DNA from: an uncultured Acidimicrobiaceae bacterium
Lineage (GTDB): Bacteria > Actinomycetota > Acidimicrobiia > Acidimicrobiales > RAAP-2
NCBI GenBank assembly: GCA_963812965.1
Contig: CAWEXG010000004.1
Location: forward strand, 79,702 to 143,701
DNA: 64,000 nucleotides
Direction: 5' to 3'
The notes under the pieces are model-generated. The model had not been told where the DNA came from. It saw only the letters and a program-made list of their open reading frames with translations, and did not search any database. Below, in pieces: positions 14,191-47,056 of this stretch (the first letter of the stretch is position 1; every line of letters begins with the position of its first letter). The translations under genes and the position numbers were made by a program.

Positions 14191-14739
14191 ATGCGAATTG
14201 CCGCCGGTTCTGACCACGCCGGCTACGACCTGAAGACCGCGTTGGCCAAGCACCTGGTGGACAACGGCCACGAGGTCGTCGACCTGGGCACGGACTCGCC
14301 GGACGTGTCGGTGGACTACCCGGACTTCGGCGAGGCGGTGGGCGAGGCGGTGGCAGCCGGCCACGTTGCGTTGGGGCTGTGTGTCTGCGGCACCGGCATC
14401 GGGATCAGCATCGCCGCTAACAAGGTGCCGGGAGTACGGGCTGCGCTGGTGCACGACGTGACCACCGCCGGGCTGGCTCGGCAGCACAACAATGCCAATG
14501 TGATCTGCTTCGGAGGTCGGACCACCGGGATCGTCGTTGCTACTGACGCGCTCGACACCTTCCTCACCACTGCGTATGCAGGCGGCCGCCACCAGCGCCG
14601 TATCGACGAGATCTCGACGTACGAAGCCAGTCACCACGACGTCGAGCGCCACGACACTGAGCGCCACGACACCGGGCAACGCAACGAAGGTCAGCACGAA
14701 GCAGACCGACACAGGGAAAGGCAGCAACCAACATCATGA
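14191..14739 (+). CDS. rpiB: Ribose-5-phosphate isomerase B with a His/Arg/Glu-rich C-terminal tail
   Basis: [37 protein letters not shown] is RpiB/LacAB family. The stop overlaps the glyA start (ATGA at 14736-14739). Confidence 0.9.
14644..14673. repeat. 15-bp tandem repeat x2 (gagcgccacgacacY), in frame in the rpiB tail
   Basis: Read directly. It encodes [10 protein letters not shown]. Confidence 0.85.
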
Positions 14740-27011: not shown

Positions 27012-28307
27012 GTGCCATTGCTGGAGGACCGGTTCGTCGTCTCGTCCAACGGACCACTGTCGGGAACGGTCCGAGCCGGCGGCGCCAAGAACTCGGCGCT
27101 GAAGCTCATGGCGGCGTGCCTGTTGGCGGACGGTCGCCATGTCCTGACCAACGTTCCCCAGATCACCGACGTCGACATCATGGCCGAGGTCCTCACCGCC
27201 ATGGGTGTCACCGTGACCCGGGGCACCACTCCCGACGAGCTGGTGGTGGACACCCCGGTCGACGTGCTGCCCGAGGCGCCGTACGACTTGGTGGAGAAGA
27301 TGCGTGCGTCGGTGGTGGTGCTCGGCCCGTTGCTGGCCCGGCACGGCAGGGCACGGGTGTCGATGCCTGGAGGCGACGACTTCGGGTACCGCCCCATCGA
27401 CATGCACCTCCACGCCCTCGAAGCGTTGGGTGCGGCGTTCGAGTCGTCCCATGGGTATGTCGAGGGAACGGTGGAGAGCACGGTGGCGGGGAGACCTCGG
27501 CTGGTGGGCACCCGAGTGGTCTTGGAGTACCCGAGCCATACCGCCACCGACAACGTGTTGATGGCCGCGGTGCTGGCCAAGGGCACCACCGTCATCGAGA
27601 ACGCCGCCCGTGAGCCCGAGCTGTGCGACCTGGCCGCGTTCCTCAACGCCATGGGGGCCAAGGTCCGTGGTGCCGGCACCTCTCGGATCGAGGTGGAGGG
27701 GGTCGACTGCCTGCATCCCGCCCGTCATCGGGTCGTCGCCGACCGGGTGGTGACCGCCACGTTTCTGGCCGCCGCCGGTCTGGCCGGTGGCGCCGTTGTG
27801 GTGGAGGACGCTCGTATCGACCACATGGACATGCTGGTCCGGAAGCTGACCCAGACGGGGATGCACATCACCCAGGGCCCCGATGGGCTGCGGGCCGAGC
27901 GGGATCCGGCACACCGGCCCCGGGCAGTCGACATCGCCACGCTGCCGTACCCCGGGGTGGCCACGGACTATAAGCCGCTCATGGTGACCTTGCTCACCGT
28001 GGCCGACGGGGTGAGCATCGTGACCGAGAACCTGTTCTCCGGTCGGTTCCGTTATGTCGAGGAGCTCCGGCGCATGGGCGCGGACATCCGCACCGAAGGG
28101 CACCACGCCGTGGTCCGTGGTGTGCCCCGCCTGTCGGGTGCGCCCGTCCGGTCGTCCGATATCCGAGCCGGTGCGGCGTTGGTGCTGGCCGGGTTGGCGG
28201 CCGAGGGGGAGACCTCGGTCTCCGGCGCCCACCACGTGGACCGGGGCTACGAGGACTTCGCCGGCAAGCTGCAGTCGCTCGGCGCCAACGTCGTCCGAGC
28301 CACCTGA
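27012..28307 (+). CDS. murA: UDP-N-acetylglucosamine 1-carboxyvinyltransferase
   Basis: [32 protein letters not shown].. is the MurA fold. This copy has Asp in place of the usual active-site Cys (GGDDFG), as I recall for actinobacterial MurA. The GTG at 27012 is preferred over 26982. Confidence 0.9.
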
Positions 28308-28357
28308 TCCCACAGGCTGGCGAGCCGGTCCCCGACCCCGGATACGCTTCGAACCCG

Positions 28358-29392
28358 ATGCGAAACCACCGCTCTGCCGATCCCGCCACGCTGTTCGACG
28401 CCGCGTGCGCCGGGGACCGTGCGGCGCTGGCCCGCCTCCTCTCGTTTGTCGAGCGGGGAGGGGAGCAGTCCCGCAACGTTGCCCGCCTGGTCTATCGAAC
28501 GCCCGGGCAGGCCTACACGGTGGGGATGACCGGTGCACCCGGGTCCGGGAAGTCGACCTTGACCGATCGCCTGGTCGCCGCTGCTCGTCAGGACGGGCTT
28601 CGTGGCAGCTCCCTGCAGCCTGCAGGCCCTGATCAGGTCGCAGTCCTGGCCATCGATCCCTCGTCTCCGTTCACCGGTGGCGCCATACTCGGGGACAGGG
28701 TTCGCATGCAGGGCCACGCCCTCGACGACGGCGTCTACATCCGCTCCATGGCTACCCGGGGCCACCTCGGCGGGCTGGCGTTGGCTGTGCCCGACGCTGT
28801 TCGGGTCCTGTCCGCCGTGGGTCTACCCCTCGTGTTGGTGGAGACGGTCGGAGTCGGCCAGGTCGAGGTGGAGGTGGCGTCGGCCACCGACACCACCGTG
28901 GTGGTGGTGAACCCCGGTTGGGGTGACACCATCCAGGCCAACAAGGCCGGTCTGCTGGAGATCGCCGACCTGTTCGTCATCAACAAGGCAGATCGGCCCG
29001 GTGCCAAGGAGACCCGCCATGACCTCGAGGGCATGCTCGACCTCACCGAGCTGGGCGAGTGGCGGCCGCCCATCGTCGATACCGTCGCCTCTACCGGTGA
29101 CGGTATCGAGGAGCTGTGGTCGGCAATTGCCGACCACCGGACCTACCTGGTCGACAACGACCTTCTGGACACCCTCCGGCGTGAGCGGCTGGAGCGGGAG
29201 CTCCACCAGGTCTTGGTGGCGCGGGTTGCAGAGCAGGTCGAGGCGTTGCGGGAAGCATCCGGGTATTCCGCCGTGATCGAGGCGCTGGCTGCCGGCGAGC
29301 TCGATCCCTACGAGGCCAGTGATCGGCTCCTGACCGGTAGTGGCTTGCCGGTTCTTAACGAAGAGCTGTCACGGGGACAGGACCCGTCATAG
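28358..29392 (+). CDS. meaB: Methylmalonyl-CoA mutase-associated GTPase (MeaB/ArgK family)
   Basis: 344-aa ORF with P-loop GAPGSGKSTL, then ETVGVGQ and NKADR. Confidence 0.85.
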   Translation: MRNHRSADPATLFDAACAGDRAALARLLSFVERGGEQSRNVARLVYRTPGQAYTVGMTGAPGSGKSTLTDRLVAAARQDGLRGSSLQPAGPDQVAVLAIDPSSPFTGGAILGDRVRMQGHALDDGVYIRSMATRGHLGGLALAVPDAVRVLSAVGLPLVLVETVGVGQVEVEVASATDTTVVVVNPGWGDTIQANKAGLLEIADLFVINKADRPGAKETRHDLEGMLDLTELGEWRPPIVDTVASTGDGIEELWSAIADHRTYLVDNDLLDTLRRERLERELHQVLVARVAEQVEALREASGYSAVIEALAAGELDPYEASDRLLTGSGLPVLNEELSRGQDPS

Positions 29393-29434
29393 GGAGAGCG
29401 GTAGATCACACCGTACCGTGGGCTACCGTGCGGT

Positions 29435-30257
29435 GTGGCTCCTGACACAACTGCCGACGCAGCTCGTGAACCCGCTTCGAGCACCGACGCGTTCGTCTCT
29501 CTCGAACGCCGGGACGACGGTGTCGCCCTGGTCCGTCTCGACCGTCCGAAGGCGAACGCCCTCTCGGCCGAGCTGCTCACCCAGCTGCGTGCCGTAGTCG
29601 ACGAGCTGGCCTCCGACCTTGCCTGGCGCCGTGGTCGTGTGGGGCGGCCCCCGTATCTTCGCCGCCGGTGCCGACGTCTCCGAGTTCGCCGCTCCCGGTG
29701 CCGCCGGAGGAGTTGCCGACCGTTTCCGTGCCGTTGGTGATGCACTGGCAGCGTTACCCCGGCTGGTCGTCGCTGCCGTGAACGGGTACGCCTTGGGCGG
29801 CGGGTGTGAGCTGGCGCTGGCTTGCGACCTGCGGGTAGCGGCAGACAACGCCACGTTCGGCCAGCCCGAGGTGCTGCTCGGCATCGTCCCCGGCGGTGGC
29901 GGCACCCAACGCCTGGCCCGGTTGGTCGGTCCGTCACGGGCCAAGGATCTGGTGCTCACCGGTCGCCAGGTCCGGGCGGAGGAGGCGTTGGCCATGGGGT
30001 TGGTCGACCGGGTGGTCCCCCGGGATGCGGTACTCACCGAGGCCCTGGCCATCGCTGCTGCCGTGGCCGGTGGGGCCGTAGCTGCCCAGGCGTTGGCCAA
30101 GCAGGCCATCGACGGCGGACTGGACACCTCGCTGGCTCACGGTCTCGACGGCGAGAAGGCAGCGTTCGTGGCGTCGTTCGAGACGGAGGACGCCACCATC
30201 GGCATCGAGTCGTTCCTCGCCAACGGTCCCGGTCAGGCGCGTTTCACTGGGCGATGA
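29435..30257 (+). pseudogene. Enoyl-CoA hydratase/isomerase (crotonase family), one frame break as assembled
   Basis: The N-terminus (LDRPKANALSAELLTQL) is in ORF 29435... After a shift near 29620 the rest is in ORF 29619..30257 (FAAGADVSEF..NGYALGGGCELALACD..LLGIVPGGGGTQRL). Confidence 0.85.
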
Positions 30258-30261
30258 AGGG

Positions 30262-32153
30262 ATGAGCGAGCCCGTCCTGTCCACGTCCGGTTCGACCGGC
30301 TCTCTCTCTGTGCCCCGCTCTGCCGCACCCGGTTCTGCCATGCCGAACCCCACCGATCCAGACCCCACCGGTCCTACTGCGGAGCAGCTCATCCAGCAGC
30401 CAGTGGCTGCGACCGTGCCCACACCGGCAGGAGAACCCCTGCCACCACCGGAGCAGGATCCGCGCTGGTTTCAGCGAGCGGTCTTCTACGAGGTGCTCAT
30501 CCGGGGCTTCTTCGACGGGAACGACGACGGCACCGGCGATCTGCCCGGCCTCATCGCCAAGCTCGACTATCTCCAGTGGCTCGGTGTCGACTGCCTGTGG
30601 CTCCTTCCTTTCTACCCTTCGCCCCTTCCGCGACGGTGGCTACGACATCAGCGACTACTTCACGGTGCACCCCGACTACGGCACGGTGGAGGACCTGCGG
30701 ACGCTGTTGCGGGAGGCCCACGCTCGTGGCATCCGGGTCATCGCCGATCTGGTCATCAACCACACCAGCGACCAGCATCCGTGGTTCATCGAGTCCCGTC
30801 AGAGCCGAGACAATCCCAAGGCCGACTGGTACGTCTGGAACGACGACGACCAACGGTGGCCCGAGGCCCGTATCGTCTTCGTCGACGTCGAGCGGTCCAA
30901 CTGGGCCTACGACCCGGTGCGTGAGCAGTACTACTGGCATCGCTTCTACTACACACCAGCCGGATCTCAACTACGAGAACCCCGAGGTGGCCGACGCCAT
31001 TCTCGACGTGGTCCGGTTCTGGCTCGATATAGGGCTCGACGGCTTCCGACTCGATGCGGTGCCTTTCCTCTACCAAGAGGACGGGACCGCAGGGGAGAAC
31101 CTGCCAGCCACCCACGCGTTCATCCGGAGGGTTCGATCCGAGCTCGACATCAAGTACCCCGGGCGGATCCTCCTGGCCGAGGCCAATGGGTGGCCGGCCG
31201 ACGTGGCCGACTACTTCGGTGACGACGACGAGTGCCATCTCTGCTTCCACTTCCCGTTGATGCCGCGGTTGTTCATGGCCGTTCGGCGTGAGCAGCGGTA
31301 CCCGATCACCGAGATCCTGGCGCAGACGCCAGCGGCTCCGCCCGGTGGCCAGTGGGCCATCTTCCTCCGCAACCACGACGAGCTCACCCTGGAGATGGTG
31401 TCCGACGAGGACCGGGACTACCTGTTCGCGGAGTACGCCAAGGACCCTCGTATGAAGCGGCACATGGGCATCGGCCGGCGGTTGGCCCCGTTGATCGACC
31501 GTGACCGCCGGTTGGCCGAGCTGCTCTACGCGTTGCTGCTGTCCCTGCCCGGAAGTCCCGTCCTCTACTACGGGGACGAGATGCAGATGGGCGACAACCT
31601 CTATCTAGGGGATCGGGACTCGGTCCGGACTCCGATGCAGTGGACGCCCGACCGGAACGGTGGTTTCAGCCGTGCCGACTTCGCCCAGCTGTACCTGCCC
31701 CCGCTCATGGACCCGGTCTACGGGTTCCAGGCGGTGAACGTGGAGGCCCAGCAGCGCAACCCGAGCTCGTTCCTGCACTGGATCCGACGCATGCTGGGTG
31801 TCCGTCGTGACTTCCCTGTGTTCGGGACGGGTGAGTTCGAGGTCCTGCCCTGCTCCAACCCGTCCGTGTTGGCGTTCGTCCGTATCGAGCAGGCGACCGA
31901 CGGAAATCCCGTGCTGTGCATCCACAACTTGAGCCGGTTCGCCCAGCCGGCCGAGCTCTACATGGGACGCTGGCACGGTCTCCAGCCGGTGGAGCTGTTG
32001 GGCCGGGTACCGTTTCCCCTGGTGGGCATCGATCCGTATCCGGTCACACTCGCACCCTACGGCTACCAGTGGTTCGAGCTGGTGGAGCCGGTGGTGTCGC
32101 TGACCGGGGAGCTGTCGCTCGTGGTGGACGCTTCTGTCGAGGCACTGTCGTGA
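30262..32153 (+). pseudogene. treS: Trehalose synthase (maltose alpha-D-glucosyltransferase), frame broken twice as assembled
   Basis: GH13 motifs are spread over three frames: [27 protein letters not shown] | [27 protein letters not shown] | GFRLDAVPFL..LLAEANGWP..FLRNHDELTLE. Shifts are near 30625 and 30955. Confidence 0.9.
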
Positions 32154-33487
32154 ACGTCTTCGAGGCACCCGACACCGAGCTGCCACCGGCGTCGAACCAG
32201 GCGCGCTGGCCGAGCTGGTGGTCGCGTTCGTCTACCGCCAATCGGGGTGGATGGGCACCGCTGGGCAGGCAGTGGTCGAACCTCGAGCCGTCGTCGGTGT
32301 CGATCGCGCAGTGCCGACGTGATCCGTTCCGGGCGCCCCGGTCTGATCTCGGTGGTGTCCGAAGTGGTCGGCATGGTCGTGCACGTCGTGTTGGGACTGC
32401 GGGCTCCCGGGGACGACGTCCAGTTCCTGGCCGACGCCGACGACGCCCCGCTCGGTCTGCTCGAGGACGAGCACGGGATGGCCGTGGTCTTCGACGCCCT
32501 CTCCGACGCCGAGCTGGCCCTGCTGCTACTGGGCACGGTGGCCGAGGACCAGGGCGAGCTGCAGCGGGTGCGCCGTGGATCGGTCACCGCCGACTCGCTC
32601 ACGCTGACCTTCGACGACCGCCTGTCGTTCACCGTCTTCCAGCAGCTCCCCGTGGAACCGGGACCGCACACCGGGCTCGAGCTTCGTCGTTGCCCTCGAC
32701 GAGGTGGGGTTCAACCATGTGCCCGCCCCCTGTGCCTTATGGCGTCGGGACGGGAGGGATCTCGGCATCGTTCAGGAGTACCAGGCCGGTGGCACCGGCG
32801 GGTGGGCCCTGGCCCTGACGTCGCTCCGTGATCTGTACGCCTCGGGTACATCGCCCGAGCACGCCGGGGGGGACTTCGCCACCGAGGCTCGACATCTCGG
32901 CACCATGACGGCGCGCATGCATCTCGCTCTCGACCAGGCCTTCGGTCACCGGCCGGGCAACGTCGCCACGTGGGCTACGTCGATCGAGGAGGTGGTCCGT
33001 TCTGCCGACCCTGCGCTGCTCGACGACGATGGCGTTGCCGACCTGCTCGCCGACCTCCGGCTCCTGTCCCGCCAACAGCGCTGCGATCAGGACCCACGGG
33101 GACTTTCATCTGGGTCGGGTGGCCCGAACGGACGAGGGGTGGTTCGTCGCTGACTTCTCGCCTGGGGGGACCTTAGGACCAACGGTCGCTTCCCTGTCGT
33201 CTGCCGATCCGGTCTTTCGCTCCCCGCTGGCCGACGTGGCCGACATGTTGTGGTCCTTCCACCACGTCGCCGACGTGGCAGCCATCGAACGCGATCCGGC
33301 TGGTCGTCTGCAGCTGTCCGAGCTGGCCATGGCCTGGGAGGTCCGGAACCGGTGGGCGTTCCTGATGAGCTACTTGGCGACGCCGGGGATCGATGCACTG
33401 GTGCCTCCGGTCCATGACGTGGTGCGCAACCTGACGGCAGCGTTCGAGCTCGAGCGTTCGGCTACCAGGCAGACACTGCGTACCTGA
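32150..33487 (+). pseudogene. pep2: Maltokinase (Pep2/Mak), frame broken at least 4 times as assembled
   Basis: A GTGA overlap joins it to the treS stop. Fragments include LGIVQEYQAGGTGGWALALTSLRDLY and the kinase core IRTHGDFHLGRVARTDEGWFVADF..RSPLADVADMLWSF. Shifts are near 32200, 32330, 32690 and 33085. Confidence 0.8.
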
Positions 33488-33591: not shown

Positions 33592-34584
33592 CTAGCCCAC
33601 GTCGGCGACGGGAAACGGCACAGCCAGCTGCTCGGCGGCCTGCTCGGGATTGACGATGTTGATCAGCACACCGGTCCCCAGCTCGAACCCGGCCACGGTG
33701 GTCAGCTTCGGTGCCACGTGGACGTGCCAGTGATAGGGCTCGGGGGCCCGGTAGGGAGCAGAGTGGAAGACCAGGTTGTAGGCCACGTCACCGACCACGT
33801 CACGGAGACGACCGAGCACCGTTCGAAGTGCACGTCCCACGGCGACCAGGTCGGCCGGCGGGCTGTGGTGGAGGTGAGGACCGTGGGCCCGGGGGATCAC
33901 CAGCATCTCGTACGGGGTCCCGCTCCAGAACGGGCAGATCACCAGGACTCGTTCGTCGGCATAGACCACCCGGTAGCCGACGTCCTCTTCGGCATCGACA
34001 GTGGTGCACAGCAGACACCGCCCGGCGAACCGGGCGAACCCGGCCTGCTCCTCCACCAGCTCTCGGGGGACGAAGGACATGCCGAGCAGCTGGCCGTGGG
34101 GGTGCTCGATCGAAGCGCCCGCCTCTCGACCGGCGTTGACGATGGCCTGGCTGTAGCGCAGCCCGGGGATATGGGAGTGCTCCTCGATGCGGTCCCGGAT
34201 GGCGGCCATGACCAGCCCGGTCTGGTTCTCGCTCAGCATCGACCACGAGTCCTGATGGTCGGGGGAGAGGACCAGGACCTCGTGGATACCGCCTGCCGTG
34301 GCCTGGGTGAAGATCGGGCCCCGGTTGGTCACCACGAACGGCTCGTCGCCCTCGAACGCCGGGTAGAGGTTGGGAACGACCCGGACCCGCCAACCGCCTT
34401 CGGGGCCGTAGGTCTCCAGGGCCGGGGGGTTGGACTCTTCGTTGCCAGGGCAGAAGGGACACGGTCGACTGGTGTCGGCCTGGATCGGGACGAGCCGGGG
34501 GGAGAATGCCCTGGGGCGCTGTGCTCGGTCGGTGCTCACGACTACCCACCGTCCGGTCATGGGATCGAGACGGAGTTGGTTCAT
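33592..34584 (-). CDS. galT: Galactose-1-phosphate uridylyltransferase
   Basis: RLDPMTGRWVV, zinc site CPFCPGNE, active site HPHGQL. The ATG at 34584 is preferred; the ORF track starts at 34647. Confidence 0.88.
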   Translation of the reverse strand: MNQLRLDPMTGRWVVVSTDRAQRPRAFSPRLVPIQADTSRPCPFCPGNEESNPPALETYGPEGGWRVRVVPNLYPAFEGDEPFVVTNRGPIFTQATAGGIHEVLVLSPDHQDSWSMLSENQTGLVMAAIRDRIEEHSHIPGLRYSQAIVNAGREAGASIEHPHGQLLGMSFVPRELVEEQAGFARFAGRCLLCTTVDAEEDVGYRVVYADERVLVICPFWSGTPYEMLVIPRAHGPHLHHSPPADLVAVGRALRTVLGRLRDVVGDVAYNLVFHSAPYRAPEPYHWHVHVAPKLTTVAGFELGTGVLINIVNPEQAAEQLAVPFPVADVG

Positions 34585-34758
34585 GTCGGAGGGGTGATTC
34601 CGGTAGGCCTGACTGCAGGCAGAGTGTCCATGGGCAATCCGTGACATGTGCTAGTAGTTCGATGTTCTTCTGTAAACGTAGCAACGGAGAACCCTCCGTT
34701 GTATTCATGGGTGTGCCCGAAGCCACGATCGGTGGTCGGCAGCGCGAGAATCCCCCGC

Positions 34759-35359: not shown

Positions 35360-36028
35360 TTAGGTGGAAGAGGACGCCTCGATCGAGGTTCGGAGCAGTT
35401 GGCGGGCATCGTCGATGCGGCCGGCCCGGACCAGATCGGTGACGGGGCCGGAGAGGATGGCCGACCAGTCGACGGTCTCGGTGGACCGCCCCTCTGCCTG
35501 GACCCATCGGCGGGCCTGAGAGAGCAGGGCGGCCAGGATCCCGGCCTCGTCGCCGATGGCAGCGGCCACCTGATCACGGAGCCAGCCGGCCAACGCCGGG
35601 CTGGCGCCTCCGGTGGAGACGGCCACGGTGACGTCGCCACTCCGGTGTATGGCCGGTAGCAGGAACGTGCAGTTGGCGACGTCGTCGGCGCTGTTCACCC
35701 ACACCCCGGCAGCGTCGGCGTCGCCGGCCACGGTGTGATCGACCTCGGGATCGCCGGTGGCGGTGACCACCAGCCGGTAGCCGCCTGCCTCACCCGGCTC
35801 GTACCGCCGTTCGTGAAGGACCAGCGACCCGGCACCCGGCTCCTCGGCGGTATGCCGAGCGAGCAGGCGGAGCGGATCGACGATGTCCGGGGCCACGACG
35901 ACGACGTCCGCTCGGCAGCGGAGCAGCCCTTCGACCTTCCGGGTGGCGATCGGCCCGCCTCCCACCACCAGACAACGCCGTCCGCCCACCGACAGGGCGA
36001 CCGGGTACAGCGGTGCGTCGTGGGACAC
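35360..36028 (-). CDS. Precorrin-2 dehydrogenase / sirohydrochlorin ferrochelatase (siroheme synthase N-terminal-type, SirC/Met8-like)
   Basis: 222-aa ORF with Rossmann motif CLVVGGGPIATRKVEGLL and length typical of the CysG N-domain. It lies downstream of cysDN. Confidence 0.75.
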   Translation of the reverse strand: MSHDAPLYPVALSVGGRRCLVVGGGPIATRKVEGLLRCRADVVVVAPDIVDPLRLLARHTAEEPGAGSLVLHERRYEPGEAGGYRLVVTATGDPEVDHTVAGDADAAGVWVNSADDVANCTFLLPAIHRSGDVTVAVSTGGASPALAGWLRDQVAAAIGDEAGILAALLSQARRWVQAEGRSTETVDWSAILSGPVTDLVRAGRIDDARQLLRTSIEASSST

Positions 36029-36041
36029 CGGTTGGCTGTCC

Positions 36042-37394
36042 TCAGCTCGAGCCAGCAGGACCGACGGAGACGTCGGGCAGGCCGATCATCCCGGCGGCGA
36101 CCGTGCCGTTGGTGGCCGGATCGATGAGCACGAAGCTTCCGGTGATGCGGTTCCGTTGATAGGGATCTGCCGCAAGCGGGGAAGCAGTGGCCAGGACCAC
36201 GGTGCCGATGTCGTTCTCGCCCAACGACTCGGTGGGCGAGATCTCCAGATCGTTGACGTCGAGCCGTCCGGTCACCGACACGACCCGAGCTGGGGTCACC
36301 CGGGTGGTGTGCTTCAGCCGGAACTGGCTGCCGACGGCGAGTGGTCGCCTGTCGAACCAGCACACGGTGGCTTCTATCTCCGACACGACTTCGGGTGGCT
36401 CGTCGGCGGCGGCCAGGAGGTCGCCCCGGCTGATATCCACGTCGTCGGCCAGGTGGACGGAGACGGACAGTCCCACCGACGCTTCGTCGAGGGAACCATC
36501 CAGCGTCTCTACGTCGGTCACCGTGGTTCGATGTCCACCGGGAAGCACCACGACCTCATCGCCGGGCCGGATCGGTCCACCGTTGACCATGCCGGCGTAG
36601 CTCCGGCCTCCTCCGGGCTGCCGGAGCACCCACTGGACCGGTAGTCGGGCGCCCGACCCGTGGTGGGCGCCGTGCACGCCGGCCCACGCTCCGGCCGGCG
36701 CCTGTTCCAGCGCCTCGAGAATGGTGGGCCCCTCGTACCAGGGAGCTGCATCGGAACGATCGGCCACGTTGTCGCCGTAGAGGGCGGACACCGGGACGAC
36801 GGTGCACGATTCGACGCCGAGCCGCTCGGATAGCAGAGCCATGTCGGTGACTACCCGCCCATAGGCGGCTTCGTCCCAGGCGACCTCGTCCATCTTGTTG
36901 GCTGCCACGATCAGCTGGCGGACCCCGAGCAACGCGGCGATACAGACGTGGCGACGGGTCTGCTCACGCAGGCCCTTGGACGCGTCCACGACGACGAGGG
37001 CCAGATCGGCGGTGGAGGCGCCGGTCGCCATGTTCCGGGTGTACTGGACGTGACCGGGACAGTCGGCGATGACGAACTTACGCGTCGGCGTGGCGGCGTA
37101 GCGGTAGGCCACGTCGATGGTGATGCCCTGCTCCCGCTCGGCTCGGAGACCGTCGGTGACGAAGGACAGGTCGACACCGTCAACCCCACGACGGCGCGAC
37201 GCCGTCTTCACCGCTTCCAGCTGGTCGTCGAAGAGCTGTTTCGTGTCGTGGAGGAGGCGCCCGATCAGTGTCGACTTCCCATCGTCGACGGAGCCGACGG
37301 CGGCGAACCGCAAGAGGTCCATGACCGGTTCTGGAGCACCGTCTGTGCTGCCTGTGTTGGTGACGGCGGCCGCGCCGTCTGTGGCTGCGGCCAT
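36042..37394 (-). CDS. cysN: Sulfate adenylyltransferase subunit 1 (GTPase; no APS-kinase domain)
   Basis: 450-aa ORF with G-domain motifs GSVDDGKSTLIGRLL, DCPGH and NKMD, and EF-Tu-like barrels. Confidence 0.92.
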   Translation of the reverse strand: MAAATDGAAAVTNTGSTDGAPEPVMDLLRFAAVGSVDDGKSTLIGRLLHDTKQLFDDQLEAVKTASRRRGVDGVDLSFVTDGLRAEREQGITIDVAYRYAATPTRKFVIADCPGHVQYTRNMATGASTADLALVVVDASKGLREQTRRHVCIAALLGVRQLIVAANKMDEVAWDEAAYGRVVTDMALLSERLGVESCTVVPVSALYGDNVADRSDAAPWYEGPTILEALEQAPAGAWAGVHGAHHGSGARLPVQWVLRQPGGGRSYAGMVNGGPIRPGDEVVVLPGGHRTTVTDVETLDGSLDEASVGLSVSVHLADDVDISRGDLLAAADEPPEVVSEIEATVCWFDRRPLAVGSQFRLKHTTRVTPARVVSVTGRLDVNDLEISPTESLGENDIGTVVLATASPLAADPYQRNRITGSFVLIDPATNGTVAAGMIGLPDVSVGPAGSS

Positions 37395-37397
37395 TGG

Positions 37398-38342
37398 CTA
37401 GAAGTACCCCTCGCGCTTGCGGTCCTCCATGGACGTCTCGGAGAAGCGGTCGTCGGCCCGGGTGGCTCCTCGTTCGGACACCCGTGAGACGGCGACCTCG
37501 TCGATGATCTGGGCAACGGTGGTCGCTTCGGACCGGACCGCACCGGTGCAGGTGGCGTCGCCGACAGTCCGGAAGCGGACGGTCTCGACCACCGCCGACT
37601 CGCCGGCTCCCGGGGTCACCCACTCCGACTCGGCCAACAGCATGCCGTCGCGCTCGATGACCGGCCGACGGTGCGCGTAGTAGATCGACGGCAGCTCGAT
37701 CGACTCCCGGGCGATGTACTGCCAGATGTCGAGCTCCGTCCAGTCCGAGAGCGGGAACGCCCGAAGGTGCTCTCCCGGCTGGACCTGGCCCGAGTAGAGC
37801 TGCCAGAGCTCGGGCCGCTGGCGCTTCGGGTCCCACTGGCCGAACGTGTCACGGAAGGACAGGACGCGCTCTTTTGCTCGTGCCTTGTCCTCGTCCCGGC
37901 GGGCACCGCCGATGCAGGCGTCGAAGCCGTGCTCACCGATGGCGTCGAGGAGAGCGGTGGTCTGGAGCCGGTTGCGCATGCCTTCGGGGCCGGGGTCGGC
38001 CACCCGGCCGGTGTCGATGGAGTCCTGAACCGATGCCACCAGGAGTCGTTCGCCCAGCTCCTTGACACGTCGATCCCGGAACTCGATCACCTCAGGGAAG
38101 TTGTGCCCGGTGTCCACGTGGAGAACCGGGAACGGAAGGCGGCCAGGACGGAAGGCCTTCTCGGCCACCCGCAGCAGCACCGCCGAGTCCTTCCCGCCGC
38201 TGAACAGCAGCACCGGATGCTCGCACTCGGCCGCCACTTCCCGCATGATGAAGATGGCATGGGCTTCGAGAAGGTCGAGATGGTCGACCCCGGTGCTCGG
38301 GCCTGCCGTGGCGGCAGCGATGGGATCGAAGATCGTCGTCAT
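37398..38342 (-). CDS. cysD: Sulfate adenylyltransferase subunit 2
   Basis: PAPS-reductase-fold motifs LFSGGKDSAVLL, VDTGHNFPE and GGARRDEDKARAKERV. The ATG at 38342 (MTTIFDP) is preferred over 38435. Confidence 0.92.
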   Translation of the reverse strand: MTTIFDPIAAATAGPSTGVDHLDLLEAHAIFIMREVAAECEHPVLLFSGGKDSAVLLRVAEKAFRPGRLPFPVLHVDTGHNFPEVIEFRDRRVKELGERLLVASVQDSIDTGRVADPGPEGMRNRLQTTALLDAIGEHGFDACIGGARRDEDKARAKERVLSFRDTFGQWDPKRQRPELWQLYSGQVQPGEHLRAFPLSDWTELDIWQYIARESIELPSIYYAHRRPVIERDGMLLAESEWVTPGAGESAVVETVRFRTVGDATCTGAVRSEATTVAQIIDEVAVSRVSERGATRADDRFSETSMEDRKREGYF

Positions 38343-38712
38343 GGCGAAGCCGTCCTTTCTCGTGCGGGGTTGGCGCTGCTGGGGTTCCAGGGCTTTGGGG
38401 CCTGGTAGATCCGGTATCTGGTAGATGTCTGGCACCTACCCGTTCATTCCCATATTCGATTGTTCAAAATCCTGATCTGGTTAGTCATATATACTCCCGT
38501 ATGGGTCGTTGAGCAAGGCGGTACAACCGTTCTAGAGGAACTGGGGTACGGCGTTGACCAGGAAGAAACCCTATGGATTCAGTAGAGAATGGCGTCGCTC
38601 CCCGGCGTCAGCAAGGGCAGGTTCGAAGGCCGTTCACCTCCCCGTACACCCTCGTACGGTGGCGAGAACGGCTGCATTCAGATCGACTCCATCGATCGAA
38701 AGTTGGTACCCA

Positions 38713-39391
38713 ATGCCAAGCGATCAAGAACTGAAGACACTCCGTGAAGAGCTGGCCGAACGGTCGGCGGCGTTCGAGACCGAGCCGGCCGGCGCCGTCA
38801 TCGCCTGGGCCGTCGAGCGGTTCGGGTCCGGGGTCTGCGCTGGCTTGCTCGTTCCAGGACGCGGTCATCGTGGACCTGGCCGTCGCCGTCGATCCGGGGA
38901 TCGAGGTCGTCTTCTTGGATACCGAGGCCCACTTTCCGCGAGACCCTCGAGTACGTCGAGACGATCCGTGCCCGTTACGACCTCAACCTGACCGTGACGA
39001 AGCCGGTGGCCAGGGCGCCGAGTCGTTCCCGTGCGGTTCGGCCCAGTGCTGCCAGTACCGCAAGGTGTTGCCGCTACGGGACGCCCTGGCCGGGAACGAG
39101 GCATGGCTGACCGGGCTGAAGCGGGTCGACGCCCCCACCCGGGGCGCCGCACCCATCGTCTCCTACGACGACAGCTGGGGCATGGTCAAGATCAACCCCC
39201 TGGCCACCTGGACCGACGCCGACATCGCCGGGTACGAGTCCGATCACGACATCCCTCGCCACCCGCTGTTGTCGGAGGGGTACCTGTCGATCGGGTGCGC
39301 ACCCACCACCCGGCCGGTGGCCGAGGGTGAGGACCCCCGCGCCGGACGGTGGTCGGGTACCGACAAGGTCGAGTGCGGGCTGCACGTGTGA
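38713..39391 (+). pseudogene. cysH: (Phospho)adenosine phosphosulfate reductase, APS-reductase type, frame broken 3 times as assembled
   Basis: MPSDQELKTLREELA..; SFQDAVIVDL..FLDTEAHFPETLEYVETIRARYDLNL (restored by hand); CCQYRKVLPL..WLTGLKR..SIGCAPTT..KVECGLHV. Shifts are near 38840, 38939 and about 39010. Confidence 0.85.
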
Positions 39392-41284
39392 TGGCCCGGG
39401 ACAAGGACAACCTGTACGGGATGCAGTTCCGGGGGAACGAGCGGTCCCTCCAGTTCGTCGACCCCTACCGGACCATCGGTGAGCTGAACACCGTCGAGCA
39501 GCAGAAGCTCGACGGCACCCCTTCGAGGTGGTCGACGCCATCATCACCCGCTACTCGGTGGAGGGGCCGGGGGCCATCAACTCCATCCCTGGCGAGGTGG
39601 AGCGGTTGAAGTGGGCTGGGCATCTATCCGCAGAAGCAGGGCGGCGACGCCTTCATGCTGCGGATCAAGGTTCCCGGCGGCTTCCTCACCGCAGCCCAGG
39701 TCCGGGAGATCGGCATCGCGGCCGACGCCTTCGGCGAGGGACCGGACGGCACCGAGAGCGCTGTGTTCGGGGCCGCTACGCCGACATCACCACCCGGCAG
39801 TCCATCCAGCTCCACTGGATTGCGCATGGAGGACATGCCCCGGGTGTGGCGAGCGGTTCAAGGATGTGGGGCTGACGACCTTGCAGGCGTGCGGAGACGG
39901 GATGCGCAACGTGCTCAGCTGCCCGGTGTCCGGGGTGGACGCCCACGAGGCGTTCGACGCTCTTCCCGTTGCCATGGCGGTATCGGCGTTCTTCACCGGT
40001 AATCGCGAGTACGCCAACCTCCCCCGGAAGTTCAAGGTCAGCGTCTCTGGCTGTGTCGAGGACTGCGCCCAGGCCGAGATCAACGACATCGGGCTGTGGG
40101 CGGCCCGGGCAGAAGACGGCACCCTTGGCTTCAACCTGCTCGCCGGTGGCGGCCTTTCCGACGGCGAGCGCATGGCGTCGGACATCGACGTCTTCGTCGC
40201 ACAGGACCAGGCGGTGGAGGTCGTCCGTGCCATCGCCCAGCTCTTCGGCGAGCTCGGCAACCGGGAGAACCGTGGGCTGGCCCGCATGCGCTACCTGGTC
40301 CAGGAGCTGGGACCCGAAGGTTTTCGGGAGGCGTTGGCGGCACGGGCCCACTTCGAGCTGCCCACCGCCGGCGAGGCCCTCACGACGCGGTACCGGGGCG
40401 ATCACGTGGGCGTGCACGCCCAGAAGCAGCCCGGCCTTGTCTACGTGGGCTGCTCGGTGCCGGTCGGGCGCATGTCCGGCATCGAGCTGGTCGAGGTGGC
40501 CCGGTTGGCCGAGACCTACGGCGACGGCACCGTCCGGACCGGGACCGACCAGAACTTCATCTTGACCGGCGTCCCCGAGGACCGGGTCGACGACCTGCTG
40601 GCCGAGGGGCTGTTGCAGAAGTACTCGCCGTTCCCCGGGCCGTTCTCCCGGGGCGTGGTGGCGTGCACGGGCAGCGAGTTCTGCCGGTACGCCATCGTCG
40701 AGACGAAGGAGCGGGCGGTCAAGTGGGCGCGGTTCCTCGACCGTGAGCTGGCCGGCGAGCCGGTGGGTGCGCTGCCGGTGCCGGGACGCTCGCCCGATCG
40801 GGAGGATGCCGGAATCATCCGGATGCACTTCTCGGGATGCTCGGCGTCGTGCGCCCAGCCCCAGATCGCCGATGTGGGCTTCCGGGGAGAGGTGGCGCAC
40901 GTGGGCACCCACCTCTCGGAGGCTGTGGACATCGGGCTGGGCGGGTCGCTGGGGACCGATGCCGGGTTCATCGACTGGGTGGAGCACGCCCTCCCGGTCA
41001 ACGAGGTTCCCGACGCCATGCTGCGGTTGGTCCGCCGGTACCAGGCTGAGCGCCGCCCGGACGAGCCGTTTTACAACTGGGCTCGGCGGGTGCCGAACGA
41101 AGATCTGCGGGGCACGCTGCTCGAGTCGGGGGTCGGGACGCCGGTGACGTTGGCGCCGACCAAGAAGGCGGCTGCAGCTGGTGCGTCTGCTGCCGGCGGG
41201 AAGTCCAGCGGGAAGAAGGCTGTGACGTCTCCCAAGGCGGCGACGACACAGACGAAGACGACACAGACGAAGAAGGGGCGATGA
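39391..41284 (+). pseudogene. sir: Assimilatory siroheme/[4Fe-4S] sulfite reductase (ferredoxin-type, NirA/Sir family), frame broken at least 5 times in its first 460 bp as assembled
   Basis: The ATG overlaps the cysH stop (TGATG). Hand-joined N-terminus: ..RLKWAGIYPQKQGGDAFMLRIKVPGGFLTAAQVREIG..RYADITTRQSIQLHWI... An intact 3' 1.4 kb follows, with the cluster/siroheme Cys motifs VACTGSEFCRYA and FSGCSASCAQP. It ends in a Lys/Ala/Thr-rich tail. Confidence 0.85.
41243..41272. repeat. 15-bp tandem repeat x2 (acgacacagacgaag), in frame in the sir C-terminal tail
   Basis: Read directly. It encodes TTQTK-TTQTK. Confidence 0.9.
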
Positions 41285-42606
41285 AGGCGTACCGCATCCG
41301 TGACGAGATGAACGGGATCGCCGAGCCACCGGGCAAGACCTGGTTCTGGGAGCTCGAGGCAGCCGTTGTCGAAGCCGATCGATGCATCCAGTGCGGGACC
41401 TGCATCGCCGCCTGCCCGTCCAACTCCATCGGTATCAACGAGGACACGTTGCTGCCCGAGCTGGTGAAGATGTGCACGGGATGTTCGCTGTGCTGGGACT
41501 TCTGCCCCCGTGGCGGCCTGCGTTACGAGGCGCTGTGGCCGCCGTCGACCCCCGGTGTCGTACCTGCGTCCTCGTCTGCCGCCAACGGCGCTACGACGAA
41601 CGGCGCAGCTGATGTCGGCGACGGCATCGCCAACCAGACGGTGGTGCGGACGGACTCCTCCGATCCGTACTGGAAGATCACCGGTGGCCCTCCCGGTGAC
41701 GGCTTGGGCGCGGTCCTCGGGTCGTATGCCGTGCGCGCCGGCACCCGTCCGGACGACGCCCAGGACGGCGGTGTGGTCTCCGCCCTGCTGATCGCGGCGC
41801 TGGCGGCAGGAGACATCGACGGCGCCTTGGTGTCCAAGCCGAGCTCCGACCCTGACGAGCCGTGGAAGGGGATCACCACCATCGCCACCTCGGCCCAGGA
41901 GATCCTCGACGCTGCCGGCAGCTTCTACAACCAGACCATGGCGCTGGCCGGTCTCGACCTCACCGGCTACGACCTTCCGGCCAAGCCCCGCCTGGCTGTC
42001 GTGGGCACCCCGTGCGAGATCCAAGGCATCCGGGCCATGCAGTCTCGACGGTGGCCGACCGGTGCGCACCGGGTCGATGCGGTGGTGCTGACCATCGCGT
42101 TGCTGTGCACGAAGAGCTTTGACTACGAAGGACTGATGCTCCGGAAGCTGCGGGACGAGCGCAATATCGATCTCGACCGGGTCAGCAAGGTCGATGTGAT
42201 CCACGGCCGGATGATCGTGGAGTACCGGGACGGGCAGGTGGCTGTGGACGAGCCGGTCAAGGACTTCCACGGCGCCGCCCTCAAGGGCTGCGACGAGTGC
42301 GCCGACTTCTTGGGCCGCAGCGCCGACCTGTCGGTGGGAAGCGTGGGGTCGATGGACGGCTGGTCGAGCGTGCTGGTGCGGACCGAACGGGGCAAGCTGG
42401 CGCTCGACAACGCCCGCGGTCGGCTCGACTTCCGAGAGCTCGACAACCCCGAGGCGTTGGTGAAGCTGGACAACTTCGATAAGAAGGTGGCTCGCAAGGC
42501 GCTGCAGCGCGAGCTCGACCCCGATGGCCCGCTTTTCATCGACTTCGAGGAGCACCTGGAGACCTACGGCGGGACGGATCGCTCCCCGGTGGTCCTGGAC
42601 CGATGA
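41281..42606 (+). CDS. FrhB/FdhB/FpoF-family protein (coenzyme F420 hydrogenase/dehydrogenase beta-subunit family) with an N-terminal 2x[4Fe-4S] ferredoxin domain
   Basis: Intact 441-aa ORF whose ATG overlaps the sir stop (ATGA at 41281-41284). It has CIQCGTCIAACP and CTGCSLCWDFCP. The FrhB-like core is DGGVVSALLIAAL..GDIDGALV, VGTPCEIQGIRAM, LLCTKSF and GCDECADFLGRSADLSVGSVGS..WSSVLVRTERG. Confidence 0.75.
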   Translation: MKAYRIRDEMNGIAEPPGKTWFWELEAAVVEADRCIQCGTCIAACPSNSIGINEDTLLPELVKMCTGCSLCWDFCPRGGLRYEALWPPSTPGVVPASSSAANGATTNGAADVGDGIANQTVVRTDSSDPYWKITGGPPGDGLGAVLGSYAVRAGTRPDDAQDGGVVSALLIAALAAGDIDGALVSKPSSDPDEPWKGITTIATSAQEILDAAGSFYNQTMALAGLDLTGYDLPAKPRLAVVGTPCEIQGIRAMQSRRWPTGAHRVDAVVLTIALLCTKSFDYEGLMLRKLRDERNIDLDRVSKVDVIHGRMIVEYRDGQVAVDEPVKDFHGAALKGCDECADFLGRSADLSVGSVGSMDGWSSVLVRTERGKLALDNARGRLDFRELDNPEALVKLDNFDKKVARKALQRELDPDGPLFIDFEEHLETYGGTDRSPVVLDR

Positions 42607-42631
42607 GCACAGATCGGATGGGTACAGACCG

Positions 42632-43024
42632 ATGAGCAGAGAGCACCCTCGACCGCCGGGCAGGAAGGGCAAGAGCGAGCGCACGGTGGCGCTGCCCGAG
42701 TTCATCGAGGTGGCTGGTGGACCTCGGCTGGACCTCCCTCGGGAGCCGGTCGAGCTGCGGGATGGTCTGCGCGATGTTCTTCTTGCAGGGGGGGACTGGG
42801 GTGAGGGTCTCAGCGACGATCACGACATCGCCCTCTGGCTCTGGCGCCAGTGGCAATCGGTCCTGGAGCCTGCCGGCTTCGGTCAGGACGAGCTTGCCGA
42901 AGTCGTGATGGCCACGAGGCGAGAGCTGTGGCTGTGGTTGCTCGGTGACCGGATCTGGAACCAGTACGTTGCCGGTCTGGCCGGACGAGTCCTGCGCCGG
43001 CTCCCGCAACCATCGGTCACATAA
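42632..43024 (+). CDS. Hypothetical protein (130 aa), last gene of the cysH-sir-frhB-like string
   Basis: The ORF starts 26 nt after the frhB-like stop. It is Trp/Leu-rich (ALWLWRQWQ, LWLWLLGDRIWNQY). I recognise no family motif. Confidence 0.45.
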   Translation: MSREHPRPPGRKGKSERTVALPEFIEVAGGPRLDLPREPVELRDGLRDVLLAGGDWGEGLSDDHDIALWLWRQWQSVLEPAGFGQDELAEVVMATRRELWLWLLGDRIWNQYVAGLAGRVLRRLPQPSVT

Positions 43025-45101: not shown

Positions 45102-47056
45102 GTGCGTCCTGAAAGCTGGACCAGACCTGCGGGTGCAAGTCCCGCCTGGGTAATCGCCGGAGAGCCCAGTAGCAGACCCCGGTCCGTCGCCGAGAGGCGG
45201 CGGGCTGAGCGGGGTGTCAAAAGCCTCTTTGGAGGGAGCAAGCGTGCGGGCCGTAGTGCCACCAGGCACGAGTCCTGCAGCCTCGTCAAAGTTACAACGG
45301 AGGAGCCGAGCCGCTCATGCCACGGCGAAGGCAGTATTCGACCAACTGGCGCACCGGACATGCCCCTGGTCGAGTCCTTCCGGGGTATGGGGAGCGGCAC
45401 GTACGCACGGTGTGGTTCGGAACAGGAGAGGCCCGTCTTCCCAGCCTTGTCAGCAAAGACCGCTCGGATAAGCCAATGGTGAAACCGAACGGAGGGAAGC
45501 GGGAGTCCGACGGGGTCGTAGTACTGATGAGCGCCGGGATGAACCCGGCAGGAGGGAAGGACCCCGACTTCGGTCACGCCGGGAACGAAGGAACGAGCGA
45601 GGGCATGGCCGGGACCGCCCGGCCCATCTCCCCCCTGGGACAACCGTCCCAGGCCAAAGTTCGACGCCTCCAGAACCGGCTATGGGCTGCGGCCAAGCAG
45701 TCTGAGGGTCGGCGTTTCCACGCCCTGTATGACCGCATCTACAGAGACGACATCCTGTGGGAGGCGTGGAACCGAGTCCGAGCCAATCGTGGAGCTGCTG
45801 GGGTCGATCATCTGACCCTGGCAGACGTGGAGGACGACTACGGAGTCGAGCGTCTGCTCATCGAGCTCCGGGACGACCTCCGTGCAGGCAACTACCGCCC
45901 GGCACCAGTTCGCCGGGTGGAGATTCCAAAGCCCGACGGCACGAAGCGGCCACTGGGTATCCCAACGGTCAAGGACCGGGTGGTCCAACAGGCAACCAAG
46001 CTCGTCCTCGAACCTATTTTCGAGGCTGACTTCCTGCCCTGCAGTTTCGGGTTCCGCCCGAAGCTTTCGGCCATCGACGCCTTGGAGAAGATCCGGGTCG
46101 GCTTCATCAAAGACAAGCACTTCGTCTTTGAGGCCGACATCCAGAACTTCTTCGGCGAGATCGACCACGAGCGATTGCTCTCCCTGGTCGGCCAACGGGT
46201 CTCTGACAAACGGGTGCTCAAGCTGCTTCGGCTGTGGTTGCGTGCAGGCGTGTTGGCAGACGGGGTGGTGTCTGAGTCGGTCTCTGGCACTCCCCAGGGC
46301 GGGGTGATCTCACCGCTGCTCGCCAACGTCTACCTGCACGCCTTCGACCAGGCCTGGGCTGAGCGTGGCACGGGAGAAGTCGTCCGCTATGCGGACGACT
46401 TCGTGGTGCTGTGTTCGTCTCAGAGACAAGCTGAGGAAGCCCAACGGCGGGCGACCGCCATCTTGGGCGACCTCGGTCTCGGACTCCATCCGGACAAGAC
46501 CCGAGTGGTCGACCTCGGGGAGGGGAAAGAGGGCTTTGACTTCCTCGGGTGCCACCTTCGTGCCCGCATGTCCGGCAAGCTCTGGGAGCAAAAGCGGGTC
46601 ATCCGCTACTACCTCCACCGCTGGCCGTCACAGCGGTCCATGAAACGAGCCCGGGCGAGGATCAAGGCCATGACCGGTCGAAGCCAGGTCGGACAGGAGT
46701 TGGAGACCGTCATCGGACGGCTCAACCTGTTCCTTCGGGGATGGGGCAACTACTTCCGCAACGGGAATGCGGGCGACAAGTTCATAGCAATGGACCGCTA
46801 CGTGGCATGGCGGCTGAGACGCTTGCTCATCAAGAAGCGTGGCCGCAATCTGCGAGCGGGACAGTGGGACACTTGGACCCGCACCTGGTTCCACGACCAG
46901 GGCCTGCACAAGCTCATGGGCACTATTCGATACCCGAAGGCAGCGTAACCATGTCCAGACGACCGTCGGTAAGCCGTGTGCGGGAAAACCGCACGCACGG
47001 ATTGAAAGGGGGATGGGGAACCGGGCTCGCGTTGCGAGTACTGCGCCCCTGACTAC
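45102..47056 (+). mobile_element. Bacterial group II intron (about 1.95 kb) with the ORF in domain IV
   Basis: 5' GTGCG at 45102-45106. A domain V-like hairpin AAGCCGTGTGCGG-GAAAA-CCGCACGCACGGATT lies at 46971-47003. It is followed by a domain VI-like region ending ..CTGACTAC at about 47056. An RT/maturase ORF lies inside. Boundaries are +/-10 nt. Confidence 0.8.
45476..46948 (+). CDS. Group II intron reverse transcriptase/maturase (no endonuclease domain seen)
   Basis: RT blocks: RRVEIPKPDGTKRPLGIPTVKDRVVQQA, FRPKLSAIDA, DIQNFFGEIDH, GTPQGGVISPLLANVYL, RYADDFVVLC. The maturase X region is LRGWGNYF. The ATG at 45476 (MVKPNGGK) is preferred over 45317. Confidence 0.9.
   Translation: MVKPNGGKRESDGVVVLMSAGMNPAGGKDPDFGHAGNEGTSEGMAGTARPISPLGQPSQAKVRRLQNRLWAAAKQSEGRRFHALYDRIYRDDILWEAWNRVRANRGAAGVDHLTLADVEDDYGVERLLIELRDDLRAGNYRPAPVRRVEIPKPDGTKRPLGIPTVKDRVVQQATKLVLEPIFEADFLPCSFGFRPKLSAIDALEKIRVGFIKDKHFVFEADIQNFFGEIDHERLLSLVGQRVSDKRVLKLLRLWLRAGVLADGVVSESVSGTPQGGVISPLLANVYLHAFDQAWAERGTGEVVRYADDFVVLCSSQRQAEEAQRRATAILGDLGLGLHPDKTRVVDLGEGKEGFDFLGCHLRARMSGKLWEQKRVIRYYLHRWPSQRSMKRARARIKAMTGRSQVGQELETVIGRLNLFLRGWGNYFRNGNAGDKFIAMDRYVAWRLRRLLIKKRGRNLRAGQWDTWTRTWFHDQGLHKLMGTIRYPKAA

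Follow-up and report, generated by a model that had tools for sequence, protein, structure and literature searches.

The DNA examined here is a window of 64,000 nucleotides (nt) from an uncultured Acidimicrobiaceae bacterium (GenBank assembly GCA_963812965.1, contig CAWEXG010000004.1, positions 79,702 to 143,701 of the forward strand). Its GC content is about 67%, and the nearest relatives of its proteins are from Acidimicrobiales metagenome-assembled genomes. We were concerned with a string of four genes on the + strand: cysH, sir, a gene for an FrhB-like protein of 441 amino acids (aa) that is putatively the electron-input subunit of Sir, and an open reading frame (ORF) of 130 aa, called orf130. 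A first-pass annotation, made from the sequence alone, had described these genes as a tight codirectional string, and they were found as such (Table 1). The junctions also read exactly as it had placed them. The cysH and sir genes meet in TGATG (cysH stop at 39389-39391, sir ATG at 39391-39393), and the sir stop codon overlaps the frhB-like start codon in ATGA at 41281-41284. The gap between the frhB-like gene and orf130 measured 25 nt, one less than the 26 nt given earlier. Since cysD, cysN, and a siroheme synthase gene lie divergently upstream of cysH, the neighborhood is a sulfate-assimilation locus. The cysH-sir-frhB-orf130 string is one sulfate-assimilation operon, divergent from cysDN and the siroheme synthase gene. 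Scans for promoters, terminators, and Rfam families gave nothing informative inside the operon.

Table 1. Features of the sulfate-assimilation locus (positions are those of the window)
Feature	Position	Strand	Evidence
cysH, adenosine 5'-phosphosulfate (APS)/3'-phosphoadenosine 5'-phosphosulfate (PAPS) reductase	38713..39391	+	Pfam PAPS_reduct, E 2.4e-30; NCBIfam phosphoadenylyl-sulfate reductase
sir, NirA/SirA-type monomeric siroheme-[4Fe-4S] sulfite reductase	39391..41284	+	Pfam NIR_SIR, E 9e-50, and NIR_SIR_ferr; 630 aa once corrected
Sir C-terminal tail, Lys/Ala/Thr-rich, low complexity	41150..41281	+	Read from the translation; ends at the frhB-like start codon
FrhB/FpoF-family iron-sulfur flavoprotein, 441 aa, putative aFsr-beta electron-input subunit	41281..42606	+	Pfam PF04422, PF04432, and Fer4
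2x[4Fe-4S] ferredoxin domain of the FrhB-like protein, N-terminal, residues 28-78	41362..41514	+	Fer4_21, E 1.5e-10; putative docking on Sir
FrhB-like core region	41734..42441	+	C245, C276, C337, C340, S354-V355, and 306-VIHGR aligned to FrhB
orf130, conserved Trp-rich helical protein (predicted), 130 aa	42632..43024	+	Downstream of frhB in all 81 loci
cysD, sulfate adenylyltransferase small subunit	37398..38435	-	Pfam PAPS_reduct, E 8e-41 over 345 aa; divergent from cysH, cysN next
cysN, sulfate adenylyltransferase GTPase subunit	36042..37394	-	Pfam GTP_EFTU, E 7e-43, and GTP-eEF1A_C
Siroheme synthase, precorrin-2 dehydrogenase/ferrochelatase type	35360..36028	-	Pfam NAD_binding_7, Sirohm_synth_M, and CysG_dimeriser; 49% identical to the L001 homologue

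The pairing of sir with the frhB-like gene was examined in related genomes. A scan of one genome per species returned at least 531 loci encoding relatives. The closest 80, all Acidimicrobiales-like, were examined together with one locus fetched separately, and 80 of the resulting 81 loci belong to species-representative genomes. The order cysH-sir-frhB-orf130 was kept in all of them, as far as the contigs reach, and no other arrangement was seen. The sir stop and frhB start overlapped by 4 nt (ATGA or GTGA) in 69 of the 73 loci that could be scored. More distant relatives (43 to 50% identical), haloarchaeal ones included, are likewise encoded immediately behind a gene of the sulfite reductase family. 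Thus, sir and frhB overlap by 4 nt in L084, a gene for a rhodanese-NIR_SIR fusion precedes frhB in L086 (a contig with haloarchaea-specific domains), and cysH, sir, frhB, cysD, cysN, and a siroheme synthase gene form a single string in L087. In L085, from an Actinomycetota genome, CbiX, a NIR_SIR gene, and frhB stand beside cobalamin genes. The frhB gene of L083 is probably also paired; the upstream gene that overlaps it is a cut fragment. Because the pairing persists while the surrounding genes change, it is strong evidence of a functional partnership. Conservation of the adjacency in relatives had been named in the first-pass annotation as a check on its proposal, and the adjacency proved constant in the Acidimicrobiales and recurrent in distant Actinomycetota and haloarchaeal relatives. 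A separate scan of viral contigs gave no relatives.

Some details of these loci are recorded here in their own right. In L085 (1-9311), the NIR_SIR-frhB pair directly follows CbiD, CbiG, CbiC, and CbiX (cobalamin/siroheme genes). One possibility is that the FrhB-like partner also works with NirA-family proteins in tetrapyrrole contexts; another is that CbiX is simply the siroheme chelatase. A second FrhB-family paralogue of 380 aa, which has ferredoxin motifs, is encoded in L087 at 87-1229; it lies some 7 kb away from the cys operon, and no reductase gene adjoins it. Apparent natural Sir-FrhB fusions of the Acidimicrobiales type (P0159, P0146, P0172, and P0155) were rejected as frameshift artefacts, the Sir part being out of frame upstream of the junction.

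The FrhB-like protein was then compared with known families. The first-pass annotation had assigned it by two CX2CX2CX3CP motifs and by core blocks of the FrhB family; all were present, the motifs at C35-P46 and C65-P76 and the blocks as QDGGVVSALL, GTPCEIQG, and GCDECADF...ADLSVGS. In the hidden Markov model (HMM) search that it had suggested for 41281..42606, both family profiles, PF04422 and PF04432, scored above their gathering thresholds. FrhB_FdhB_N matched residues 152-223 (E 1.7e-17; 63.7 bits against a cut-off of 22) and FrhB_FdhB_C residues 237-387 (E 3.8e-36; 124.7 bits against a cut-off of 23.3), so that the FrhB core (152-387) follows the N-terminal 4Fe-4S dicluster domain (28-78; Pfam). 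The best NCBIfam matches were FrhB and FpoF, all under the model cut-offs, and the protein is therefore neither of these enzymes proper. Automatic annotation names such proteins "coenzyme F420 hydrogenase subunit beta," a label that misleads where the organism has no such hydrogenase. Sequence matches in the PDB were led by 8riu_B, the F420-reducing subunit of the carbon monoxide dehydrogenase (CODH) of "Candidatus Ethanoperedens" (E 5e-38), followed by Fsr (7np8; 6e-36) and FrhB (about 1e-30). An AlphaFold2 (AF2) model had a mean predicted local distance difference test (pLDDT) score of 81, with a predicted disordered linker at residues 89-129 and 137-140 (pLDDT below 50). The best Foldseek matches of this model were again F420-reducing subunits, namely, 8riu_B (1e-26; template modelling [TM] score of 0.80), FrhB, and Fsr (1e-22), and the nearest solved relatives, which also include FpoF, are all F420-reactive. 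TM-scores normalized to the target were 0.80 to 0.86 for 8riu_B, 6qgr_B, and 4ci0_C, pointing to an FrhB fold. HCAR, a ferredoxin-dependent member of the family, was far more distant (16% identity).

Cofactor sites were assessed using the FrhB reference features defined by Mills et al. 2013, and conservation was counted in 120 Acidimicrobiales homologues. The core cluster cysteines C245, C276, C337, and C340 align with FrhB Cys104, 134, 192, and 195; the first three were invariant (120/120), and C340 was kept in 119/120. The eight N-terminal cysteines (C35, C38, C41, C45, C65, C68, C71, and C75) were invariant as well. All 12 Fe-S cysteines are thus present in the window protein, and eleven of the twelve are invariant across the homologues. 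S354-V355 align with S209-V210 in the flavin adenine dinucleotide (FAD)/F420 loop of FrhB and were likewise invariant, and the QDGG and SVGSVGS loops were conserved. A basic turn, 306-VIHGR, aligns with 163-IGKGK of FrhB, the proposed F420-phosphate turn ([RHK]-G-[RK]); all 120 homologues had R, H, or K at position 308 and R or K at position 310. Loss of the flavin/F420-site residues was one outcome by which the earlier proposal could have failed. On alignment, every testable family cofactor feature was kept.

Outside the Acidimicrobiales, the relatives in haloarchaeal contexts were 43 to 50% identical to the window protein, against 32 to 40% for shorter clusters of about 340 to 370 aa. Several relatives outside the Acidimicrobiales (P0133, P0134, P0135, P0138, and P0153) end in ...NPAR-x-x-Q/H-Y-E/D-x-x-C, a conserved tail with a terminal cysteine that is missing from the window protein and its near relatives. 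The haloarchaeal-looking P0125, P0157, and P0209 carry an acidic N-terminal extension, with a CxCxxCxC-like motif in P0125 and P0209.

The fourth gene of the operon, orf130, encodes 7 Trp residues. An alternative GTG start at 42686 is probable and would give a protein of 112 aa; a 112-aa homologue, P0271 (86% of the query covered), lies on a 157,124-bp contig that also encodes the identical FrhB-like protein. None of 85 homologue clusters had a Pfam domain, and all source names that bear a taxon were Acidimicrobiales/Acidimicrobiaceae or Actinomycetota. The conserved core spans about 90 residues with four invariant tryptophans. Searches with orf130 gave no Pfam or NCBIfam match and no fold match in the PDB, and its AF2 model was confidently helical (pLDDT of 86). 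Every one of the 81 loci has an orf130 homologue immediately after frhB, and the distant clusters have none. This constant position suggests that orf130 may act together with the sulfite-reductase enzyme. In L083 (1739-1900) and L086 (9314-9529), a small ORF of 53 to 71 aa, unrelated to orf130, follows frhB.

The first-pass annotation regarded the arrangement of a reductase gene followed by an FrhB-type gene as undescribed. However, a putative two-subunit "aFsr" (aSir plus an Fsr-N homologue) was named in haloarchaea in 2012 (Susanti and Mukhopadhyay; PMC3448663), and the aFsr trees of that study already held sequences of Rubrobacter xylanophilus and Thermobaculum terrenum (PMC3448663). In 2022, aFsr was still termed putative. 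The window pair is a putative bacterial member of this predicted enzyme type. As in aFsr, a beta gene of the Fsr-N/FpoF-like kind comes immediately after an aSir/NirA-type alpha gene, which it overlaps here in ATGA, and the window protein shares with aFsr beta the two N-terminal ferredoxin-type clusters and the FrhB core. P0133 and P0153, from haloarchaeal-looking contigs, are 43 to 50% identical to it and among the next-closest full-length clusters after those of the Acidimicrobiales. Unlike haloarchaeal aFsr, the window pair has a bacterial host, and its frhB stands between the cysH-sir side and a lineage-specific orf130. The window protein also differs from several relatives outside the Acidimicrobiales, some of them haloarchaeal, in lacking their ...Y-E-x-x-C tail, and from some haloarchaeal-looking aFsr-beta proteins in lacking their acidic, Cys-rich N-terminal extensions; a haloarchaeal Sir may carry a fused rhodanese domain, unlike the window Sir. 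As far as we know, what is additional here is the uniformity of the cluster across the Acidimicrobiales, the consistency of the stop/start overlap, and the coconserved orf130.

Two other known systems provide further comparisons. The N-terminal half of group I Fsr of Methanococcales (7NP8, 7NPA) has the domain architecture of the window protein; in Fsr, a ferredoxin domain (2x[4Fe-4S]) leads into an FrhB-type F420H2 oxidase that holds FAD and a single [4Fe-4S] cluster. Its electrons pass from FAD over three clusters to the reductase (PMC10229431), and the overall logic of Fsr (F420H2 to FAD, Fe-S chain, siroheme, and sulfite) matches the one proposed here. However, Fsr is a single polypeptide and its reductase is Dsr-like, with a single repeat and extra ferredoxin clusters, whereas the window ORFs are separate with a stop/start overlap and the window Sir is a NirA-type, two-repeat assimilatory enzyme. 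Therefore, the window system is not Fsr proper. Fsr is also a tetramer, serves mainly in detoxification, and belongs to strict anaerobes. In "Ca. Ethanoperedens," F420-reductase subunits are found on CODH and on formylmethanofuran dehydrogenase (Fwd), which are normally ferredoxin linked (Lemaire et al. 2024; PMC11493965). These subunits (8RIU_B and 8RJA_E) resemble the window protein in standing alone and in consisting of a ferredoxin domain, an F420-reductase domain, and a C-terminal extension, and they are its best sequence and fold matches. The zeta subunit of 8RIU is anchored to CODH through its ferredoxin domain (PMC11493965). They differ in that they reduce F420, the opposite direction, in archaeal catabolic complexes, in being just 24 to 29% identical to the window protein by structural alignment, and in lacking its predicted disordered linker of about 60 residues (89-140).

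On balance, we lean toward reading the FrhB-like protein as an electron-input subunit dedicated to assimilatory sulfite reduction, one that probably oxidizes F420H2 and is a bacterial counterpart of the aFsr subunit. We infer a physical complex of Sir and the FrhB-like protein, the electron path through it, and F420H2 as the donor. In this scheme, CysH would yield sulfite, and Sir, a siroheme-[4Fe-4S] enzyme of the NirA/SirA type, would reduce it to sulfide. The ATGA overlap would cause Sir and the FrhB-like subunit to be made in a fixed ratio. [quoted passage not shown] NirA-type reductases, including M. tuberculosis SirA/NirA and plant ferredoxin-nitrite reductases, normally take electrons from free ferredoxin; the ferredoxin domain of the FrhB-like protein may therefore replace the soluble ferredoxin that normally docks on them. 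Of the conceivable donors, F420H2 is the likeliest, since all characterized close relatives use it. The redox span for F420H2-driven sulfite reduction is adequate, with F420 at about -380 mV under physiological conditions and the acceptor at -116 mV (PMC10229431). Thus, of the split bacterial analogue of Fsr put forward by the first-pass annotation, the separate, cotranslated FrhB-type partner of a NirA-type Sir stands on conserved adjacency, overlap, cofactor motifs, and fold, while the F420 input is putative.

Several results weigh against this proposal. Pfam scans of the 38 window ORFs of about 150 aa or more found no F420 biosynthesis gene and no F420-dependent enzyme, a result with little bearing on the genome as a whole. 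The wider aFsr-beta clade does not conserve the basic turn (TDGV, VGNG, or KSGE stands there in haloarchaeal and other relatives), which is therefore of limited worth as an F420 marker. An F420-bound structure of Fsr does not exist, and the residues for specificity are poorly defined (PMC10229431). No experimental work on aFsr or on a bacterial F420-dependent sulfite reductase was found in the literature searched. Finally, cysH and sir are not open frames as deposited, according to three-frame translation and protein-guided frameshift alignment.

The first two of these points also favor the alternative that the partnership with Sir is as described and the donor is not F420H2, the FAD being fed by NAD(P)H or another carrier or the FrhB-like protein being a mere Fe-S relay reduced by a further partner. 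The FrhB fold occurs in the ferredoxin-dependent HCAR too, and a 2021 review gives F420-reactive enzymes of the FrhB-type redox-coupling family for Euryarchaeota only (PMC8498797). Against this stand the use of F420 by all characterized close relatives, the lack of a nicotinamide-binding domain in the family (Pfam), and the fact that each of the 120 Acidimicrobiales homologues retains both the basic turn and the S-V loop. Moreover, all members of the clade that were seen came from Actinomycetota or haloarchaea, and F420 occurs in both groups. F420 has been reported in haloarchaea, and its biosynthesis has been reported in another order of Acidimicrobiia (PMC7771536). We therefore consider a donor other than F420H2 unlikely, although it is the strongest of the competing explanations.

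A bolder version of the F420H2 proposal is that the Acidimicrobiales run sulfate assimilation on F420H2 by means of a three-component enzyme, composed of Sir, the FrhB-family subunit, and orf130, which would be the first F420-reactive FrhB member in bacteria. We offer this version tentatively, as possible but doubtful. If true, this version would give F420, of whose physiology in aerobic soil bacteria little is known, a central anabolic role in bacteria; the Acidimicrobiales are an abundant aerobic soil lineage. Confirmation of the F420H2 proposal would tie F420 to a core biosynthetic pathway in this widespread soil order, would be the first experimental test of the 2012 aFsr prediction, and would add a third FrhB module that converts a ferredoxin-type enzyme to F420, after those of Fsr and the ethanotroph CODH/Fwd.

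The substrate of the reductase was also considered. In HMM searches, sir matched NIR_SIR and NIR_SIR_ferr and cysH matched PAPS_reduct, in line with their original assignments. The two sir domains make the enzyme an assimilatory NirA/aSir type, as the aFsr alpha subunit requires. Sir belongs to the same family as plant ferredoxin-nitrite reductase (E 8e-83) and M. tuberculosis SirA/NirA (1ZJ8; E 8.6e-70), and matches to dsrA/dsrB were only E 3e-5 to 6e-5, so that the reductase is NirA-type and not Dsr-like. No FrhB-family gene is known to adjoin the mycobacterial SirA/NirA cluster. Since the best PDB and NCBIfam matches of Sir were ferredoxin-nitrite reductases, the enzyme might instead be an assimilatory nitrite reductase, or one of dual function, and the pair might serve nitrogen rather than sulfur assimilation. 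The related FsrII of anaerobic methanotrophic archaea (ANME) turned out to be a nitrite reductase (PMC9295563), and sulfite reductases commonly also reduce nitrite (PMC3448663). However, cysH overlaps sir, cysD, cysN, and the siroheme synthase gene adjoin the operon, the pair sits within a complete cys operon in L087, and no nitrate/nitrite transporter or nitrate reductase gene was found nearby. In addition, Sir reads GIYPQ and LQACGD at the F and S positions of plant nitrite reductase. These readings presumably fit the Tyr-Cys pair reported for M. tuberculosis sulfite reductase (Schnell et al. 2005). A role in nitrogen assimilation is therefore very improbable.

The low-complexity C-terminal tail of Sir (Lys/Ala/Thr/Pro-rich) varies in length and composition among relatives, from absent to about 50 aa. 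It was noted in loci L002, L003, L006-L008, L011, L014, L024, and L025, and in L001 it was called as a separate ORF of 39 aa. The tail might be a flexible tether.

The broken frames of cysH and sir raise the possibility that the cluster is decaying, with cysH and sir as true pseudogenes and the downstream genes as relics or repurposed. The cysH gene has 3 single-base indels (at about 38837, 38940, and 39011) and sir has 5 (at about 39513, 39622, 39774, 39823, and 39851), making eight frameshifts within 1.1 kb, all between 38837 and 39851 and missed by the first-pass annotation. After correction, CysH was identical at 191/220 positions and Sir at 515/587 positions to the intact proteins of L002, and neither had in-frame stops. 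The corrected proteins were thus 87 to 88% identical to intact relatives, and conservation was even along their length, whereas decay long enough for eight indels should also bring many damaging substitutions. The essential gene glyA (serine hydroxymethyltransferase; 14730-16040) shows the same kind of defect, its otherwise conserved sequence being spread across three frames. In the related loci, sir or cysH matches were split only in MFD-named assemblies (8/50, against 0/30 others). The MFD assembly names and contig labels resemble those of long-read assemblies. Given the conserved corrected proteins, the broken glyA, and the restriction of split matches to MFD assemblies, the eight indels are most likely sequencing or assembly errors and not gene decay. 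With frhB and orf130 intact as well, we rate decay of the cluster as slightly less probable still than a nitrite-reducing role. Elsewhere, the window at 1-2478 and 28300-33100 contains only short ORFs or genes whose Pfam match begins mid-profile, such as those for an enoyl-CoA hydratase at 29598 and an alpha-amylase at 30258. The assembly seems to contain scattered patches of indel errors.

That the sir-frhB adjacency has no functional meaning and the FrhB-like protein works in an unrelated pathway, for which the second FrhB paralogue away from sir in L087 might speak, is hardly credible in view of the order kept in every Acidimicrobiales locus examined, the near-constant stop/start overlap, and the recurrence of the pair in distant lineages while other neighbors differ.

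A few further features of the window were noted. The divergent intergenic region between cysD and cysH is 277 nt long and contains, in the cysH leader, an imperfect 19-nt inverted repeat (38629-38672; 79% complementary, with a 6-nt loop) that matched no Rfam family. A GalT/HIT-family gene (galactose-1-phosphate uridylyltransferase-like) lies near the sulfate-assimilation genes both in the window (33592-34647, - strand) and in L001 (3159-4151). Some enzymes of the GalT/HIT superfamily use adenylylated nucleotides as substrates, and a link of this gene to APS metabolism is conceivable. A gene for a HipA-type toxin kinase, with HipA_C and Couple_hipA domains, is located at 4380-5726 on the - strand. 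Directly downstream of ychF is a group II intron (45127-46945), in which the Rfam family group-II-D1D4-4 matched 45127-45261 (99 bits) and the intron ORF at 45257-46945 encodes reverse-transcriptase and maturase domains.

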